Shown: positions 45,124 to 55,082, numbered from the stretch's first letter. The stretch: 64,000 bases of DNA from Arenicellales bacterium (GCA_965219265.1 OZ244730.1:1546501-1610500); one strand, 5' to 3'. Program-made: numbers and translations. The notes: generated from the letters alone by a model not told the origin.

Positions 45124-46851
45124 TCAACTATCTGCTGACACGACCGGAAATGCCCAGTCATCGGATTTCTCAGAATGCAGTTCGTCTGGGAGGGGAGCGC
45201 CTTGAAATAACGTAATTCGTGTCCACAGATCGGATTTTGGATCGAAACGGGTTGCACCGAATATAGAAAGTTTGCACCGTAAAATATTAATTGGCAAACA
45301 GTCAGCACCAAGCAGATTGTCCTGAATCTCTGCAAATGGAAAACCCTCCAGCGAATGAATTCTTGTAATGATGTGGCGAAAATGTGGCTGCACCAAAAGA
45401 AATTCTGCAACTGAACAATTTTGGTTTTCTGCCGATGCAACACACAGAGCCTGATACAGACGAGCAACATCCCGAGCAACACCAATTCTCATTTCCAATT
45501 CGCTTCCCGGCTCGTTATATCGCTCGCCCCGCCGCGGTTCTTCCTTCTCTTGAGATACATACCAGAAGAAATACTCCGAACTGGGATTTGAGAAATCGAT
45601 CTGCAATGCCCATCCATAATGATTTTCGATGTGAGATTGAAGTTGTTCAACAGTCATTCTTGCATCCAGTCGAGTGAATTCGCTCACACCCATATACTGT
45701 TCAAGCTCGTTGACCAACTCAGGATGCAATTCCAATATCAAACTGTGGACAAGTTCCTGACATTCCAGACTGGCATGGGCAGATGCCCATTCAACAAGGT
45801 GATTCCAAGGGAATTTTGTGCCTCGCAACGAAGATCCCATACTCGTCAGTTGTTTAACTTCGTTCTTCAATACTTGAATTCGGCACTCTTGCTCTTGATC
45901 AAGAGTAATCCACTGCTCCAAATGCCTGCTCACCCGCTCAATGAGATTTTCGAAGCGGCTGACGACTGCCTGTGAAATCTCTTCAACGGCCTTCACCCGT
46001 GAAATTGCCGTTTCTCGTATGTACATCCATTGATTGATTAGTTGAGGATGCCCCACCAGAAATGGCGCCATACCCAAGCCCGTTGCATTGCCGACGCCAA
46101 AAGCTCGCTTCAAAGATCTTGATAGCGGTACAAATTGCCCATTTCCTCGCTTGCGTGCAATGTGTTCGACAAGGTCTAGACTAAGCTGTCGAGCCATGTA
46201 CACCGTCAACATTTCGGCTTGAAATGGCAGATTGAACGGCGTGGTCTGTTTGACATGGTCGAAATCCAGCAATCCGAATTTTCCATTTCCATAGACTGCT
46301 GTAGTTCGAACCAGATAACCTATGGCTGCGATGTCACTAACCGCAGGTTGTCGCCCTGATGAGAGATGGCTCACTACGGACTCGAACAACCGAACACTTT
46401 TGTTCGCCCTGCTCATCACAATTTCCCGCTGGCTCATGCGGCCGGCTTCCTGTAAAGGCAGTTGTTTGTTCAACCTGTCGATGTCCGACTCAGTAGCAAT
46501 GCCATTGAACAGTGTAAACGACATGTCCCATTTCTCTGCGATCACGCGATCTGTACGATCTTGATCATCAAGCGGCGTTGCAAATGCAATGAAGCTAAGA
46601 GAGCCAGACGGAGTATGAATGAAATAGACCAGATGCCCTATACCGAAATCATCCAAAGAATTATGACCGATTTCGAATCGCCACTTCTCTCTGTGCATGC
46701 GTCTGACAAGCGTTCTGGTGAAACTTAAACGGGTAGGATGAAAAGAGCCCAGTCGTTCCAGCTTCATTACCTCTGCTGGTGATCGAAGCGCGTTCGTGTG
46801 GCGGTCTGTCGCTTCCGAGAGCGATTCCGGCTGCAAGTTTTGAGAGTTCAT
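45124..46851 (-). CDS. large conserved-looking hypothetical protein (575 aa), no family recognised
   Basis: Long uninterrupted ORF. Its start overlaps the stop of the M19 dipeptidase gene by 4 nt. No motif I can name. Confidence 0.65.
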   Translation of the reverse strand: MNSQNLQPESLSEATDRHTNALRSPAEVMKLERLGSFHPTRLSFTRTLVRRMHREKWRFEIGHNSLDDFGIGHLVYFIHTPSGSLSFIAFATPLDDQDRTDRVIAEKWDMSFTLFNGIATESDIDRLNKQLPLQEAGRMSQREIVMSRANKSVRLFESVVSHLSSGRQPAVSDIAAIGYLVRTTAVYGNGKFGLLDFDHVKQTTPFNLPFQAEMLTVYMARQLSLDLVEHIARKRGNGQFVPLSRSLKRAFGVGNATGLGMAPFLVGHPQLINQWMYIRETAISRVKAVEEISQAVVSRFENLIERVSRHLEQWITLDQEQECRIQVLKNEVKQLTSMGSSLRGTKFPWNHLVEWASAHASLECQELVHSLILELHPELVNELEQYMGVSEFTRLDARMTVEQLQSHIENHYGWALQIDFSNPSSEYFFWYVSQEKEEPRRGERYNEPGSELEMRIGVARDVARLYQALCVASAENQNCSVAEFLLVQPHFRHIITRIHSLEGFPFAEIQDNLLGADCLPINILRCKLSIFGATRFDPKSDLWTRITLFQGAPLPDELHSEKSDDWAFPVVSADS

Positions 46852-47840: not shown

Positions 47841-48507
47841 TTATTCCCCATTCGTTAGAATCCTGATAAAGGCATTACCTTTACACAGTTTGATGTTGAA
47901 ATTTTACTCTTACTGAGCATTTTGAAGGACGATTAGATTGGGGTCAGCCAGAAGTTCTTGATAGGGATTCCCTGTTAGTAGTGCAGTCGAGTTTGCCACA
48001 GCCTTGGCTTTACCGACGCGAATCCAGTTGGCGGCCTGATAGTGCAAGTACCAATGAATTGAGGAATTTCTAAAGAAAGTTTCAAGCATCACTGACAGAT
48101 CGCGCAACGTTGCAGCTAATTCTCGGGCAGGCGTCGATCGCAACATCCAAGAAATTGAGAGGCAAGATTGGGAATGGGGATTCCAGGTAGGGCCAGCACC
48201 GGAGTTTTACTGAGTGAGCGCGGTGCCGTGTAGTTTGAAGACTATACTACACAGTATCCATCATTAGCTCAGTCCCAAGTATGCGCAGTATTATCTGCCA
48301 CAGTTCGGGTTTCGGTTTAATCGTCGTTACAGCCTGTCGGCACTGATTCCACGACTCGCTTGGGCGGCAGTGAGAACTACGCCAATGCTAGGTAGTCTTC
48401 TTGAGACTTGGCTTACCAAAAGTAATTCGTAAATTTAATCACCTGAAGAAAGGCTCCGGAATTACTGTTTACGGAGCACGAATGGTGCCCTTATTTTTTC
48501 ATTTATG

Positions 48508-49698
48508 CTAGCAAACAAATGATTTTGAAACATCTTTTAAAACTAAAGGGTTTTCGTAATCTGGATAATCTTTCTTGATCTCTGAAAAGAAGAAATTCCA
48601 AGCATCTTCTTGTCCACATATTTGGTAAAGATATAAAATGCAATCCATTACCTGATAGTCTCCATGGTGTTGTTTATGAATGTAACTGATTGTGTTTGCT
48701 TCATCTGTAGTCAATGGCATTTTCCACGGTAGCTCATCACGATCCTCCCACTGCTTGAAATTGGTCAGCCACCAGATTGATAGCGATACTTCCGGAAAAA
48801 CTTCAAGGATCTCATTTTTAATTCTTGCTATTGTTTTATTGAGAAACACCATGGCAGATTCTTTTTCTTGTAAATTTACGAGCTGAATTTTTTCCGTTAA
48901 TGATCGATATTCCGCTGCAAGTCTACTTTGAGGGTGCTTGATAGTAAATAATTCCTGATTCAACAGCGATAGACTTGGATAGTGGTGAATTGTGGCTGTC
49001 ACTTCATCAAAATCCAGGTTTTTTTTAAACTCTTTCAACCGTTGCTTTAAGATTCGGTTTTCGTCATCAAGATCTGGTACGTTTGATGGTACAAAGAAAA
49101 AATGTAATTCTTTATTGCGGTTGCTGACATCATCTCTAATTTTTTTCACAATTCGTGACAAACCTGATAAGTTCTGCTCGTTTGGAAAATACAAAAAAAC
49201 TATAGCGTCAGGAAGTTGTCGTGTGCATACTTCACCTGCGTCAGTGTAGCCAGTTCTAGAATCAATGAACACATAATCAGGGCTGAAATACTTTTTCCAC
49301 TGTGCCTTGAGGTTTTCGAACAACAAATATCCATCTCGTCGTTCGTAAAGATTTTGCCAGTCAATCGAAAGCAATCTTTGGTTGTAACCTCGGCTTCTGT
49401 CACCGGCAGGCATCATAAAAAGTTCTCCTGCCAACTTTGAGTCTAATCCAACTTTGTATAAGTAAGGTTCGATTGATGGTGCTGTATTTGTTATCAAATA
49501 ATTTCTGACGTAATCCACTATACCTTTCTTCTTACCACGAGGAAGTGCTAGATTGAAGCTTTCAAGTCCAGGCGCTTCAAGATCGAAATCCACAACTAGA
49601 ACTTTCCGACCTTCTCTTACCAGTTCAGCAGCGCAGTTCATCATTGCCAAGGAACGACCCACTCCGCCCTTAAATGAATAGAAAGTTACTATGTACAT
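48508..49698 (-). CDS. ParA/MinD-like P-loop ATPase with variant KGGVGR Walker A and an uncharacterised ~150-aa C-terminal domain
   Basis: 396 aa. IVTFYSFKGGVGRSLAMMNCAAELVREGRKVLVVDFDLEAPGL (deviant Walker A with Arg in place of the usual GK[ST] Lys), then FIDSRTGYTD (Walker B-like). Starts 3 nt after the antitoxin stop. Confidence 0.8.
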   Translation of the reverse strand: MYIVTFYSFKGGVGRSLAMMNCAAELVREGRKVLVVDFDLEAPGLESFNLALPRGKKKGIVDYVRNYLITNTAPSIEPYLYKVGLDSKLAGELFMMPAGDRSRGYNQRLLSIDWQNLYERRDGYLLFENLKAQWKKYFSPDYVFIDSRTGYTDAGEVCTRQLPDAIVFLYFPNEQNLSGLSRIVKKIRDDVSNRNKELHFFFVPSNVPDLDDENRILKQRLKEFKKNLDFDEVTATIHHYPSLSLLNQELFTIKHPQSRLAAEYRSLTEKIQLVNLQEKESAMVFLNKTIARIKNEILEVFPEVSLSIWWLTNFKQWEDRDELPWKMPLTTDEANTISYIHKQHHGDYQVMDCILYLYQICGQEDAWNFFFSEIKKDYPDYENPLVLKDVSKSFVC

Positions 49699-49701
49699 TC
49701 T

Positions 49702-50250
49702 TCAGGCAGCTATACGGAAAATTTTACTGTCATTTTGCACCTTTTCGAGTTCGTCGATATCAGGAAACCTGAGCATATTACCCAAATTCTCGTGATCAAC
49801 CAGCTCACCAGCTCTAATCGACAGTTCATCCAAATTACGTGGAAAATTCAGTAAAAATAGATAATTATCCATAGCTTTATTCTGAATGAGGGCACCTTTC
49901 TCCCATCTGTTAATTGACGCGGCACCAATCCCTGTTTGCTTCGAAAATTCCTCAACAGATTGGTTGTACGAATTACGAACCTCGCGAACTTCCTTCGGAG
50001 TCATAACGTCTCGATACCTGCAAACCGCATCATGACATAACTCACTAGCCTCGCGATCTGTATACATAAATTCGCAGTCGGCGCATCTGTAAACGGGTAC
50101 TTCAGCTTGCAATTCTACTGGCTTGTCTAGAGTTCCATAGTTGAAGACCTTAATCTGTTTTCTAGTCTGAACTCTTCCGGAACCGCAAGACCCGCATTTC
50201 TTGCCTTTTGCCAATTTCCACTTTTTATTCTTCAAATTTATATCAGTCAT
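49702..50250 (-). CDS. MqsA-family antitoxin-like protein (Zn-ribbon + XRE-type HTH)
   Basis: 182 aa. CGSCGSG...YRCADCEF (two CxxC pairs) followed by MTPKEVREVRNSYNQSVEEFSKQTGIGAASINRWEKGALIQNKAMDNYLFLL (HTH). Confidence 0.78.
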   Translation of the reverse strand: MTDINLKNKKWKLAKGKKCGSCGSGRVQTRKQIKVFNYGTLDKPVELQAEVPVYRCADCEFMYTDREASELCHDAVCRYRDVMTPKEVREVRNSYNQSVEEFSKQTGIGAASINRWEKGALIQNKAMDNYLFLLNFPRNLDELSIRAGELVDHENLGNMLRFPDIDELEKVQNDSKIFRIAA

Positions 50251-50283
50251 TTCTGTATGCCCCTAAATTAGTCAATTGGTAAT

Positions 50284-50625
50284 TCAATAGTGAAAACTGC
50301 GGCCAATTAACACATCAACTCCAATTTGAAGTTTTATATAAATAACTCGTCCCCCTGGGATTGGCTTCACTTTCATCACATAACCTTTTTTACCTTTCGG
50401 TTTACTCAAATCAATTGTTTCAATTGGGTGTCCTGATTTAAGAGTGGTCTCTATAAAATCCAAGCATTCTGCTTCGGTGAACACAAATCCAGTTTCTGGG
50501 TTTTCGACCTTGTCCGGATGCCATTTCGTTGGCATTTCTTCAGTAAACTCCGTATGAAATTTGCCTGCCTCCAATAAAGTCAACATAAATTGACGGGAAA
50601 TCTCCGATGCAAGTTCTTTCGGCAT
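50284..50625 (-). CDS. small toxin-like protein, MqsR/RelE-fold candidate
   Basis: 113 aa. C-terminus ...KGYVMKVKPIPGGRVIYIKLQIGVDVLIGRSFHY resembles the MqsR C-terminus (...VYLKITVIHDVLIVSFKEK). Position upstream of a MqsA-like gene fits the toxin-first MqsRA order. Confidence 0.5.
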   Translation of the reverse strand: MPKELASEISRQFMLTLLEAGKFHTEFTEEMPTKWHPDKVENPETGFVFTEAECLDFIETTLKSGHPIETIDLSKPKGKKGYVMKVKPIPGGRVIYIKLQIGVDVLIGRSFHY

Positions 50626-50645
50626 CAGTCAACTCTCAACAATTC

Positions 50646-50697
50646 TATCATATGATACATTGATGAACACAATTTTGCGTTAGTTTTCCTCATATGA
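50646..50697 (-). promoter_or_regulatory. paired palindromic operator candidates in the promoter of the three-gene operon
   Basis: TATCATATGATA (50646-50657) and TCATATGA (50690-50697). Centres are 42 bp apart, 21-72 nt upstream of the toxin start. A -10-like TAGAAT on the minus strand (50642-50647) overlaps the proximal palindrome. Confidence 0.5.
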
Positions 50698-51274
50698 TCA
50701 GACTTCCTAAATTCACTCTGTCGCCAGTTCCGTTCAGAGCTGAGTGGGTCACAATTCTTGAAGCAAACTTACCCATTCCAGCAATTTTCATGATTCAATA
50801 TTAATACAGCAATTAGTCCAGTATTTGCCGCATTTTGCTTCCAGCCTCATTCACTCATTCACCCAATTTTTAACAATCCTTACAGTCGTTTGAAACCGTC
50901 TTTAACTTAGTTTGGTTTGGTGAATTCGAATGATTCGATTTCAAAGAAAATGTTGTGCCAAAAACCGCAATGCATCCCAGAAATCGGTACTCGAAAATTA
51001 CAAAATTGATGTACCGAATTATTCATGCAATCTTCGTGTTATCTGATTGTATCATTGACTTTTCAATGCACTGCGTAACACCTCTGCTTCTATCAGATTT
51101 GCTTGGGCGCAAGTGCATCACTGTTGAGGATGAACTGCCTAATTTCAAAAATCGAGTTGATCCATGAAATCGCTCGAACCACTCAGATGGAAATTTGAAC
51201 GACATCAGTAATCCCCACTTTACAGGTCAATCCGGACATATACACAACTTCTAATTCAACGGGAAAGATTCTAA

Positions 51275-52705: not shown

Positions 52706-53799
52706 GAGTTCTTGACGACGACCATATAGGTATGCACATAGTCCATCGCGTGCCGTTCTGGTTCTCTTCTTACCAGTGCATTGTATCGACGATAAAAGTC
52801 GTCAACAATCTCGCGTCTTTGCTCCATCGGACGGGATGAGTTCAGACTGCCCATAAATACGGTTTCACTCCAGGAGCGAAGAGTCGGAACATACGCATCT
52901 GCAAATGCAATTGGGTCTCCTTCTCTATTGAACCGTGCTCGATACGGACACTCTGTCATACCGGTATAGATGGTTTCAAGTTGCAGTCCCGCTCTAGACA
53001 CTGCACTACCCGGGTTCTCGAACGGTGCGCGAAACAGATCAATCGTTTTGTAAAACTGGGGGAAAGCGGTGACTTGATATTCCTGTTGTGTAATTACTCC
53101 AGATTCCGCAAGCTCTCGCCATAAAATATTGAACGTGTCAAACATGTTGGCACCGCCAGTATTGCCAAGATAGCGACCTTGTTCGTCGATGCAGAAGTTT
53201 GCCATGACTAAAACTCCACCCGGCGCCAGTTCCCGGGCCCGATTAAGCAGAATTTTTTCCCAGTCAGCCTGTGCGTAGTCTCGAAAAGTTTCCCATTCCG
53301 CTCCATGCGCCCCAACAGCATGAACGTGATCGGTAATCCTGCCAGGCACTCCGCTTAACCAATGCATAGCTGTTGCAGAGAATCCAATGTCGATACTGTT
53401 GCTGGGAACAATTTGCTCATAAAACGAGGTCCCCGCGCATAAAACAAAAACATTCGAATATTGACTCAGATAGCTTTCCGCGCCTGGAATCTGGTTATGC
53501 ATAAGGCGGAAAAGAGCTGAAAAATCGTTGTGCGGCAAGTCGGTATAGGTAACGTTAATTTCTTTTGTCTTGGCGCGACCCCGCACATTTTTCACAATCT
53601 TGGCAATCATGTCCAAAGAGGTTCCACCGTCCGCGGCACCATAGTCAATTACAGAAAATGGGCGATCGCTTTCCGTTATCTCCATTTGTAAAAGCTTTTC
53701 CATCACATGGGCACCAGCACGATCAATAACATGCTTTGCACCCTGCGTATTTTCAGAATAATAACCCCCTCCTTTCATTGAAATGGAAGAGTCAGTCAT
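52702..53799 (-). CDS. SABATH/Methyltransf_7-type SAM-dependent methyltransferase homologue
   Basis: 365 aa. MKGGGYYSENTQGAKHVI (compare plant M.GG.G..SY..NS..Q), VIDYGAADGGTS, YTDLPHNDFSALF, GTSFYEQIVPSNSIDIGFSATAMHWLSGVP, ELAPGGVLVM, AFPQFYKT. Confidence 0.7.
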   Translation of the reverse strand: MTDSSISMKGGGYYSENTQGAKHVIDRAGAHVMEKLLQMEITESDRPFSVIDYGAADGGTSLDMIAKIVKNVRGRAKTKEINVTYTDLPHNDFSALFRLMHNQIPGAESYLSQYSNVFVLCAGTSFYEQIVPSNSIDIGFSATAMHWLSGVPGRITDHVHAVGAHGAEWETFRDYAQADWEKILLNRARELAPGGVLVMANFCIDEQGRYLGNTGGANMFDTFNILWRELAESGVITQQEYQVTAFPQFYKTIDLFRAPFENPGSAVSRAGLQLETIYTGMTECPYRARFNREGDPIAFADAYVPTLRSWSETVFMGSLNSSRPMEQRREIVDDFYRRYNALVRREPERHAMDYVHTYMVVVKNS

Positions 53800-54590
53800 A
53801 GGGTTTCTCCTGTTAGTAAAGCGATATTCGTGTTTAAATTTGGGGTTTATCTGTTTATATTTACAGCTTTTAAATGAAGCAGTATCTGATTATAGAAAAT
53901 ACTCAATGAGTCAAGTTACTACCAACATAAATATTCTATACTGAATGAAATTTTGCATCGTGTTGTGCTAAAAAGAATTGATTGGCCAGTTCTAGATACT
54001 GCCGAAAGTAATATCTATGGAGTTCTCAAGTGCTGCCTAAGCTCACTATTCCCAAGTTCAAAAGTTGGGCCATGATAACGCTGGATTCGGGGTCTCCATG
54101 GGATGATGAGGCAAAGGTAAGTGACGATTTTCTCACTCCACTCTTCAAAATTAACTTCCAAAAGATTAATCTTCCTAATTTGATGAAAAAGTAAAATTTT
54201 TGTGAACTGGCTGAAGATGGGCCTAATGAATTCGACCCGGAGACTGAAGACAACTTGGATAAAATTGCAGACACGGCGGCACATGCTTCTCATAAAATTT
54301 CGTAGGCATTGACAAGACACCATAGCAGTCTCAATTCGATTCGACGCCAAAGAACTTGCATAATTGCAGTTCCAATTCGTTGGCATCTCTATACTCAAAG
54401 CCCCTCGCTCGATAAATTGTTGCCCACAAAACACAAAATTCCCTAAAATTGAAATCGACTATTCTACTGTCAGTTAAGATCTGGTGCAAAATCACCCTTT
54501 GAAGCACTAAAGAAAATACTGAATTTTCGGAAATAAATCAGCGTTTTCCAGTTAAGAGCAAACTATCAAATACTTGTCGCACAGAAACAG

Positions 54591-55082
54591 ATGAAGTACA
54601 TTTTTACTCCAATTGTGTTTCTAGCAATATTCTGGCTGGCACTTTCAGGCCACTACACAGCCTTGCTGCTGTCTCTGGGCGCTTTTTGCTGTATTTGGGT
54701 GAGTTTGATTTCACGACGGATGGATATTGTTGATCTGGAAGGCCACCAAATTCGGCTGGTTACGCTGCGAATCATCCCGTACTACATTTGGCTGGCAAAG
54801 GAAATCATAGTGTCGAGCGTGATAGTAGCTCGAATGATCCTTTCTCCTAAGATTAAGTTGAATCCAGCGGTAGAGCGCCTTCCAGCAGAAGGAATGAGCG
54901 ACATGGAAAAGGTAATTTATGCTAATTCCATCACACTGACTCCTGGAACCCTCACCCTTGAAGTTTCCGATTCCTGGCTGGAAGTTCACACCATACGCAG
55001 CGATCTTCTCGATTCCCTGCGACAAGGTGAAATGGCCAACCGCATTCGTATGATTTCGGTACGCAAACAGCCTGGCAAATGA
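54591..55082 (+). CDS. mrpE: Mrp-type cation/proton antiporter subunit E
   Basis: 163 aa. ...YANSITLTPGTLTLEVSDSWLEVHTI, the MnhE hallmark. Confidence 0.82.
   Translation: MKYIFTPIVFLAIFWLALSGHYTALLLSLGAFCCIWVSLISRRMDIVDLEGHQIRLVTLRIIPYYIWLAKEIIVSSVIVARMILSPKIKLNPAVERLPAEGMSDMEKVIYANSITLTPGTLTLEVSDSWLEVHTIRSDLLDSLRQGEMANRIRMISVRKQPGK

Follow-up and report, generated by a model that had tools for sequence, protein, structure and literature searches.

What is a ParA/MinD-like ATPase doing at the end of an apparent toxin–antitoxin (TA) operon? The question is raised by a stretch of 64,000 nucleotides (nt) from an Arenicellales bacterium (GCA_965219265.1 OZ244730.1:1546501-1610500), hereafter the window, in which three genes follow one another on the minus strand: one for a putative toxin of 113 amino acids (aa) at positions 50284-50625, one for a 182-aa antitoxin/repressor assigned to the MqsA family at 49702-50250, and one for a 396-aa ATPase at 48508-49698. 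Gaps of 33 nt (putative toxin to antitoxin) and 3 nt (antitoxin to ATPase) separate them, and all three open reading frames (ORFs) are full length for their type, with the residues that are conserved in their families complete. A previous reading of the window, made from the sequence alone, had described three such minus-strand ORFs; their coordinates bear out its sizes and gaps exactly, and the motifs that it cited (CGSCGSG, CADCEF, KGGVGRS, DFDLEAPGL, IDSRTGYTD and the end of the small protein, RVIYIKLQIGVDVLIGRSFHY) are all found in the sequence. The comparative analysis reported here indicates that the trio is very probably a conserved, tripartite TA-like cassette. That it constitutes a mobile, self-repressed toxin–antitoxin–ATPase module, of which the window holds one copy, is a reading that we modestly favour.

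Conservation of the cassette

When one genome was scanned for each GTDB species, 364 ATPase-centred loci were obtained, and synteny was followed in the best 80 of these 364, of which 79 have a complete ATPase ORF. In all 79 the toxin candidate, the MqsA-like gene and the ATPase gene follow one another in this order on a single strand, and in 68 of them the antitoxin stop codon lies -4 to 25 nt from the ATPase start. These 79 loci come from more than 10 phyla. Besides Arenicellales, to which the nearest relatives of the window copy belong, the 364 loci include Acidobacteriota, Binatia, Planctomycetota, Thermodesulfobacteriota, Spirochaetia, Myxococcota, Nitrospirales, Omnitrophota and both beta- and alphaproteobacteria. 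The ATPase homologues are thus syntenic throughout with zinc-ribbon/helix-turn-helix (HTH) antitoxins, and this synteny, together with the co-occurrence of the antitoxin tail with the ATPase described below, upholds the proposal of the sequence-only reading that the ATPase is a genuine third component.

A second sample, drawn from a different collection, consisted of toxin-centred metagenome loci. Here the antitoxin gene follows the toxin gene at every locus (76/76), and an ATPase gene is present in 45 of the 53 loci with enough sequence for it to be scored. The remaining eight have no ATPase, showing that the third gene is not strictly obligatory. A Pfam tally of the 118 nearest neighbours of the cassettes is mostly metabolic, the large adjacent ORFs are housekeeping genes, and a few loci lie beside other TA pairs or transposases; this heterogeneity of the neighbours implies that the three genes move as a unit. 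The trio had been put forward as a candidate undescribed module, and among the matches listed in full-text literature for KGGVGR, PDC-M28 and MqsA with ATPase or ParA there is indeed no description of the cassette.

Two of the ATPase-less, two-gene metagenome cassettes (L134:2219-3873 and L138:2501-3882) are directly followed by two further ORFs, the second of which by eye resembles a nucleotidyltransferase-type (AbiEii-like) toxin, suggesting that TA modules lie next to one another there. One Arenicellales metagenome-assembled genome, CBDCPT010000001.1, carries two cassettes (L008 and L010) that share an orientation and are separated by about 8 kb, one with a short ATPase and a truncated toxin and the other with a 589-aa ATPase and an intact 116-aa toxin.

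A probable antitoxin of the MqsA family

Judged by its sequence, the 182-aa protein is best assigned to the MqsA family, as had been read from its two CxxC pairs and XRE-type HTH. It narrowly passes the NCBIfam model TIGR03830 (62.9 bits, cutoff 61.8) and scores under the cutoff of the Pfam MqsA_antitoxin model PF15731 (23.7 bits, cutoff 30), a cutoff that cassette homologues including P0101 clear with 33.1 bits. A single-sequence phmmer search of the antitoxin against the PDB gave no match, whereas a profile built from cassette antitoxins only retrieves E. coli MqsA at E = 6.6e-6 in a PDB-sized search, with an alignment that covers both the zinc ribbon and the HTH. The four zinc ribbon cysteines (C19, C22, C56 and C59) do not vary among 20 cassette antitoxins, and E. 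coli MqsA has its four cysteines at the aligned positions. The XRE-type HTH occupies approximately residues 86-135 (HTH_3, E = 5.8e-4), and the R-[WY]-E-x-G recognition helix of the cassette antitoxins likewise aligns with that of E. coli MqsA. Beyond this point the cassette proteins run 45-60 aa past the end of E. coli MqsA. This C-terminal extension, approximately residues 140-182 in the window protein, is made up of a variable linker and two conserved aromatic motifs, around F162 and F178 (F.L).

A putative toxin with an MqsR-like fold

The 113-aa protein has no match among Pfam, NCBIfam or PADLOC models, and no MqsR-family Pfam match was found among 55 members of its family. Its AlphaFold2 (AF2) model is of high confidence (predicted local distance difference test score, pLDDT, 93.1; predicted template modelling score, pTM, 0.85), and the best structural match to this model in a Foldseek search of 350,542 PDB chains is MqsR (3hi2_B; probability 0.98, template modelling (TM) scores 0.54/0.61), with other RelE-family toxins lower in the same ranking. 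On the predicted structure, therefore, the small protein has an MqsR/RelE-type fold, which is how the MqsR-like label of the sequence-only reading survives; as the model supports it, "MqsR-like" is a statement on fold and not on family membership. Although the E-value of this match is weak, coincidence is unlikely because the top-ranking fold is that of the cognate partner of MqsA.

A sequence relationship with MqsR was sought by profile against the PDB, by hhalign and by hidden Markov model (HMM) against MqsR, and was rejected when all three proved negative, leaving the fold as the only link. A marginal profile match to the CRISPR Csx1-Crn2 protein (8y7f; E = 0.07-0.14) was taken as chance.

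The catalytic residues of MqsR are K56, Q68, Y81 and K96. In the putative toxin the most conserved polar residues (Y96, K98, R109, S110 and H112) fall in the last two beta-strands, and four of them, Y96, K98, R109 and H112, are near-invariant across the family. The sole stretch aligned by hhalign matches Y96 to MqsR Y81, and H112 by eye occupies the position of MqsR K96. The family comprises 832 clusters at 90% identity and 492 clusters at 50% identity among 1.84 billion representatives; the 150 listed matches of the 50%-identity search are small proteins of 71-196 aa, each matched in a single stretch.

Sister genomes provide a different kind of evidence. At the same chromosomal site, locus L001 carries a toxin gene with two nonsense substitutions (Leu17 TTA>TGA and Tyr96 TAT>TAA), L002 one with a 1-nt deletion at the Tyr96 codon, and L092 one whose reading frame shifts within an A6 run. 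The three inactivations are independent of one another, and each of these loci retains intact operators, antitoxin and ATPase. By contrast, the toxin is intact at 113 aa in L091, a sample with the identical ATPase, and the window shows no damage to any of the three genes or to either operator. Repeated loss that spares the other two genes would be expected if the first encodes a costly toxin, and we consider it probable that this protein acts as a growth inhibitor of the RNase type. L002 additionally carries, at L002:5061-5412 (the site of window positions ~50251-50283, between the toxin and antitoxin genes), a relatively GC-rich insertion of ~310 bp, perhaps a small mobile element, that is found neither in the window nor in L001.

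Two plasmids contain intact toxin ORFs that are absent from the gene tables of their records: one of 120 aa in a Massilia plasmid (L088:11045-11407) and one of 128 aa in a Rhizobium plasmid (L089:4072-4458), ending GRSFHY and GRSFHE, respectively. PLSDB tables can be incomplete, and the toxin family may be systematically under-annotated.

Operator-like palindromes at the promoter

The toxin ATG is preceded by two copies of the palindrome ATCATATGA(T) at a spacing of 42 bp. Of these, the proximal operator-like site, ATCATATGAT, is at 50647-50656 and ends 21 nt ahead of the ATG, and the distal site, which on the minus strand reads ATCATATGAg, is at 50689-50698; neither has an assigned strand. 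These two are the only exact occurrences of TCATATGA in the window. Allowing at most one mismatch, ATCATATGAT occurs in the ~200 nt that precede the toxin gene in 73 of the 79 genome cassettes, against a background rate of 0.003 per 221 nt, and at least two copies are present in 44 of the 79. The same site is found upstream in 65 of 68 metagenome cassettes. Where paired, the copies are spaced preferentially by 41-42 or 50-53 bp, that is, by about 4 or 5 helical turns. Both the palindrome and its position are kept in sister loci L001 and L002 and across phyla.

The proximal palindrome overlaps a -10-like TAGAAT (50642-50647, minus strand), and this suggests to us a -10 element that a consensus scanner does not recognise: a sigma-70 consensus scan found nothing promoter-like ahead of the toxin gene, returning six weak matches, fewer than in shuffled sequence and all inside or antisense to genes. 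A scan of the locus for terminators found none.

The operator of E. coli MqsA is an ACCT-N-AGGT palindrome. Conserved, paired palindromes fit the strongly conserved recognition helix of the cassette antitoxins and imply autorepression, with the antitoxin as the presumed ligand; we regard it as likely that the antitoxin represses its own operon through ATCATATGAT.

The ATPase

The core of the ATPase, residues 1-285 (48844-49698, minus strand), is a KGGVGR-variant, deviant-Walker-A P-loop domain. It matches the NCBIfam model NF047398 (KGGVGR-motif variant AAA ATPase) over residues 2-187 with 167.8 bits (cutoff 90), and its AF2 model (pLDDT 85.3) retrieves MinD (1hyq), Soj (6iub/8jml), NifH and ParA (8ray) at the top of a Foldseek search, with probability 1.0 over ~280 columns. 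The ParA/MinD fold and KGGVGR motif reported by the sequence-only reading are thereby supported. It also matches the PADLOC model PDC-M28B (E = 6.9e-33); neither the toxin candidate nor the antitoxin matches a PDC-M28 model at E <= 1, so that the cassette corresponds to the B component only. PADLOC systems named PDC-x are unpublished candidates (PMC11811056). More than 5,800 homologues of the ATPase were found.

The switch I Asp-x-Asp (D37 and D39) and the Walker B aspartate (D146) are invariant in a 58-sequence alignment, in which R15 is not, one member having KGGVGKS. The signature lysine, K10, is present in 79 of 79 genome cassettes, whereas the P-loop lysine is replaced by arginine (Arg15, KGGxGR[ST]) in 78 and by cysteine in the remaining one; a further homologue, P0108, has the canonical P-loop lysine. 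The Lys-to-Arg change noted earlier is therefore real in the window, and is a property of the family that is in no way special to this copy. ParA-family proteins with a P-loop Lys-to-Arg mutation retain nucleotide binding and dimerisation but show little hydrolysis. By analogy with these mutants, the arginine suggests a nucleotide binding and dimerisation switch with little hydrolysis, not a motor.

The window protein is an atypical, minority short form of its family that has lost most of the TPR domain. The usual length is ~612 aa, with 71 of 79 members of at least 500 aa, and the long form has a C-terminal domain of ~320 aa that begins with canonical tetratricopeptide repeats (TPRs; consensus-TPR matches to E = 5e-33) and continues as a helical region that has motifs peculiar to the family and, judged by sequence, no relative of known structure. 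The window ATPase and its close relatives are 367-410 aa long, which leaves ~110 aa after the core. In the window this tail, residues 286-396 and the stop codon (48508-48843, minus strand), appears to be a short, fast-evolving helical remnant: it has no Pfam match, it is predicted to be helical in the AF2 model, a weak similarity (6.1 bits) links its residues 329-379 to repeat one of the long-form domain, and identity among close relatives is 30-37% as against 78-87% in the core. An unassignable C-terminus had been noted before and is indeed present, though at ~111 aa instead of ~150, since family conservation reaches to about residue 285.

In four Candidatus Binatia loci (L059, L068, L070 and L082) short-form ATPases of 412-456 aa are in every case directly followed by the gene for a ~1,140-aa biotin carboxylase/carboxyltransferase fusion, which represents a second, independent shortening of the ATPase C-terminus at a fixed chromosomal site. 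A further variation is seen on the Sinorhizobium chiapasense plasmid pSchITTGS70c (L090:4989-7193), where a 734-aa protein joins an N-terminal KGGVGR ATPase (NF047398, 134.9 bits) to a TIR_2 domain (56.9 bits); its gene adjoins two other TIR-domain genes and a UvrD-like helicase, a different and defence-like wiring of the ATPase module.

"Predicted inactive" MinD/ParA-like domains have been described in conflict systems (Kaur et al., 2020; PMC7159879), in a paper that mentions neither MqsA nor MqsR. We infer that these domains and the KGGVGR ATPases are one family.

The antitoxin tail and the ATPase

How might an ATPase of this kind be connected to a TA pair? A possible answer is offered by the antitoxin extension. 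Among toxin-centred loci that contain the ATPase, the tail after the recognition helix has a median of 70 aa and the terminal F.L motif is present in 38 of 51, whereas at the eight ATPase-less loci the median is 42 aa and the motif is absent from all (0/8). Locus L007 encodes a 284-aa ATPase without a C-terminal domain, yet its 190-aa antitoxin keeps the extension, which points to contact with the ATPase core. A precedent is found in the MqsA of the Vibrio cholerae toxin–antitoxin–chaperone (TAC) system, which carries a ~40-aa C-terminal chaperone addiction (ChAD) extension (residues 136-176) that binds a SecB-like chaperone in an aromatic-dependent manner (PMC5105189), and MqsR/MqsA/MqsC has been shown experimentally to defend E. 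coli against phage T2 (PMC10783111). Whether the ATPase acts through the antitoxin tail is, in our estimate, evenly poised.

Proposed mechanism

In the mechanism that we propose, the small protein would be an endoribonuclease toxin that is neutralised by the zinc ribbon of the antitoxin, while the antitoxin HTH would bind the palindromes and repress the operon, as in MqsRA. The ATPase would be a regulatory third partner that engages the distal part of the antitoxin's C-terminal extension, in the way that a SecB-like chaperone binds ChAD in TAC systems of the MqsR/MqsA/MqsC type, and would do so as a nucleotide-bound dimerisation switch in place of a fast hydrolase. In members of ~612 aa the TPR domain might receive an input, such as a phage or stress protein, that changes the stability or availability of the antitoxin and so releases the toxin. 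This last step, in which the TPR domain senses a trigger and the cassette has an anti-phage role, is put forward tentatively and is the less likely alternative. A broader version is more speculative still: KGGVGR ParA/MinD-fold proteins would be unrecognised nucleotide-switch sensors of immunity or stress, comparable with signal transduction ATPases with numerous domains (STAND), in which the TPRs detect a cue, the arginine P-loop serves as a latch and the output is modular, passing through an antitoxin tail to an MqsR-fold RNase or through a TIR fusion, so that the cassette would be a new anti-phage or abortive-infection system.

Several observations weigh against this reading at one or other of its steps. 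For the toxin, the sequence link to MqsR amounts to an hhalign probability of 0.4% and an HMM score of -1.0, and the structural match itself has a Foldseek E-value of just 0.049 with moderate TM scores; two of the three toxin-inactivating changes, the frameshifts, lie in short homopolymer runs and may be assembly errors. For the link between antitoxin and ATPase, the correlation with tail length rests on 8 loci from ~3 lineages and is suggestive, not statistical proof. Little weight is given to the one natural MqsA–ATPase fusion, P0101, because a single stop-codon mutation would suffice to produce it (the genes are in frame and 3 nt apart) and because its locus carries a degraded toxin. For a sensory or defensive role, the window ATPase is without most of the presumed sensor domain, no carriage of the cassette by phages was found, and the 118 nearest neighbours show neither a recurrent fourth gene nor an enrichment of defence genes. 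A consistent defence-island context, about which the sequence-only reading had asked, is accordingly not supported.

State of the window copy

The short ATPase and the broken toxins of sister genomes raise the further possibility that the window copy does not work as a system at all, whatever the family does elsewhere, a reading that is compatible with any of the other models. Its ATPase is short of ~200 aa of the family's C-terminal domain and ends in the fast-evolving tail described above, and truncated toxin genes occupy the same chromosomal site in related genomes; this lineage's copy may be sensor-less or decaying. On the other hand, the window ORFs are full length for their type with complete sets of conserved residues, both operators are intact, L091 too retains an intact 113-aa toxin, and the short form of the ATPase persists in several related genomes with a well-conserved core. 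Outright loss of function in the window is judged rather unlikely.

A remnant of the lost ATPase domain was sought at 47841-48507, next to the ATPase stop codon, and was rejected when weak tblastn matches there were not reproduced by a six-frame profile search.

Alternative explanations

A different role for the ATPase would be that of a nucleotide-dependent co-repressor. The cassette would then be a conventional TA pair in which an ATPase dimer bridges antitoxin dimers at two phased operators and so tightens autorepression, with no sensing and no stabilisation of the antitoxin. Type Ia ParA of plasmid P1 is a co-repressor of this kind, and its P-loop Lys-to-Arg mutant binds ATP and represses better. 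The phasing of the operators at 41-42 or 50-53 bp, the combination of a dimer-forming signature lysine and switch residues with arginine at the P-loop lysine, the tight coupling of the antitoxin and ATPase genes and the co-occurrence of the antitoxin tail with the ATPase would all be accommodated. What the model leaves unexplained is the ~320-aa, TPR-containing domain of most members and the fusion of the same ATPase domain to TIR; moreover, the two-gene versions apparently cope without the ATPase, and DNA binding by the ATPase is without support. We consider pure co-repression unlikely.

Alternatively, the ATPase might itself be the harmful component, for instance by poisoning MinD/ParA-dependent division or segregation, with the small protein as its adaptor or regulator. 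In vWA-MoxR/VMAP conflict systems, "inactive" MinD/ParA-like domains have been assigned to the effector position and connected with cell division (Kaur et al., 2020; PMC7159879). Known toxin families, for their part, give no sequence match to the small protein. However, it is the small gene that sister genomes repeatedly inactivate while the ATPase stays intact, as expected if the small protein is the costly one; its best fold is that of the RNase toxin MqsR, encoded toxin-first with an MqsA-family antitoxin; and toxin–antitoxin versions exist without any ATPase. An effector role for the ATPase is very improbable.

Least credible of all, to the point of being negligible, is a partition-like system in which the ATPase would cooperate with the HTH protein, bound to the palindromes as a centromere adaptor, and the small protein would serve as an addiction factor. 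In its favour are the ParA/MinD fold, the predicted DNA-binding partner with its C-terminal tail, the nearby palindromes, the few plasmid copies and the precedent of pSM19035, in which omega regulates the epsilon-zeta TA genes and also partners the ParA-like delta protein. Against it, the copies are overwhelmingly chromosomal and in unrelated housekeeping contexts, a match is present on 15 of 72,556 plasmids and is cassette-type on only 5, the 23-kb Massilia plasmid has its own ParA and partitioning determinant besides the cassette, no ParB/MinE-type partner or centromere recurs among cassette neighbours, there are just two promoter-proximal palindromes instead of a centromere array, the canonical P-loop lysine is missing in 78 of 79, and partition ATPases are not known to carry TPR domains. 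A partition function is thus not supported.

Surroundings in the window

The cassette and its two long non-coding flanks form a low-GC islet at 48250-51250 (no strand), where GC is 0.36-0.42 as against 0.45-0.51 in the flanks. The surrounding genes are catabolic or housekeeping, with a peptidase M19 gene on one side, amidase and Methyltransf_7 genes on the other and a GMC oxidoreductase gene also flanking, so that the earlier description of an AT-rich islet among catabolic genes holds. In related Arenicellales genomes, too, this chromosomal site is occupied. As to insertion boundaries, neither a tRNA nor an Rfam family nor flanking repeats were found at the islet ends, and a profile search found no second cassette in the 64-kb window.

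The 667 nt between the ATPase stop codon and the peptidase M19 gene (47841-48507) have a normal GC content, unlike the islet; they contain a 78-aa ORF (47910-48146, minus strand) without a family match, and the interval has no Rfam match. Further on, between the peptidase M19 gene and a DUF3726 gene, lies a conserved 575-aa ORF with no Pfam domain (45124-46851, minus strand), an arrangement that is repeated in all related Arenicellales loci. A second dip in GC (0.37-0.41) is seen at 53500-54750, ~3 kb past the islet and beyond the Methyltransf_7 gene.

Significance

The cassette introduces an unannotated toxin family of ~500 clusters at 50% identity that has no Pfam or NCBIfam model, and a conserved operator, ATCATATGAT, that is predicted and directly testable. 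It would also be a tripartite TA system whose third partner is a P-loop protein with a natural Lys-to-Arg Walker A replacement instead of a SecB-type chaperone, and as such could represent a new way to control a TA switch. The subject bears on the control of antitoxins by third components, and its relevance to phage defence stems from the proven activity of MqsR/MqsA/MqsC against T2. For the "inactive MinD/ParA-like" domains of conflict systems, whose role it may help to define, the cassette is a small and genetically tractable system. If the STAND-like interpretation were true, a sensor cassette acting as an anti-phage or abortive-infection system would be spread over more than 10 phyla.

Comparison with known systems

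The cassette is related in different ways to four groups of known systems. With the ParA/Soj/MinD proteins the ATPase shares its fold, the signature lysine, the switch I Asp-x-Asp and the Walker B aspartate; it differs from them in the arginine at the P-loop lysine and in its TPR C-terminal domain. Unlike them, too, it is encoded without a ParB, MinE or centromere partner, chromosomally and in variable contexts, and on the one small plasmid examined, that of Massilia, ParA is separate from the cassette ATPase.

The closest relatives of the ATPase are the members of NF047398 and PDC-M28B: the window protein passes the NCBIfam model, has the arginine at the P-loop lysine, and has a distant fellow member fused to TIR. 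PDC-M28 requires both its A and B components, whereas the cassette matches B only, and none of the sources for these families, including the description of the inactive MinD/ParA-like domains, pairs them with an MqsA-family antitoxin and an MqsR-fold toxin (PMC7159879).

The TA pair itself is most like MqsR/MqsA of E. coli (ygiU/ygiT; 3HI2, 3GN5). The two have in common a toxin-first gene order, an antitoxin with a four-cysteine zinc ribbon at its N-terminus and an XRE HTH towards its C-terminus, paired palindromes in their own promoter and, on the predicted model, the toxin fold. Similarity in sequence between the cassette toxin and either MqsR or PF15723 could not be detected, however; the cassette antitoxin has an additional C-terminal extension of ~45-60 aa, and a tightly coupled ATPase gene is present in most cassettes. 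The operators also differ, being ATCATATGAT in the cassette as compared with ACCT-N-AGGT in E. coli.

It is with the TAC systems, including MqsR/MqsA/MqsC (PMC5105189; PMC10783111), that the organisation as a whole can best be compared. These also consist of three genes for a toxin, an antitoxin and a third component; their antitoxin can be of the MqsA type, with a C-terminal extension of similar size to that of the cassette antitoxins, in which conserved phenylalanine motifs are found. The distal part of the cassette extension co-occurs with the third gene, to whose product the tail may bind. Here the third gene encodes a KGGVGR ParA/MinD-fold P-loop protein, usually with TPRs, and not a SecB-like chaperone. 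By analogy, the cassette is best classed as TAC-like in its logic, with a ParA/MinD-fold switch apparently replacing the chaperone, around a previously unannotated family of putative MqsR-fold toxins.

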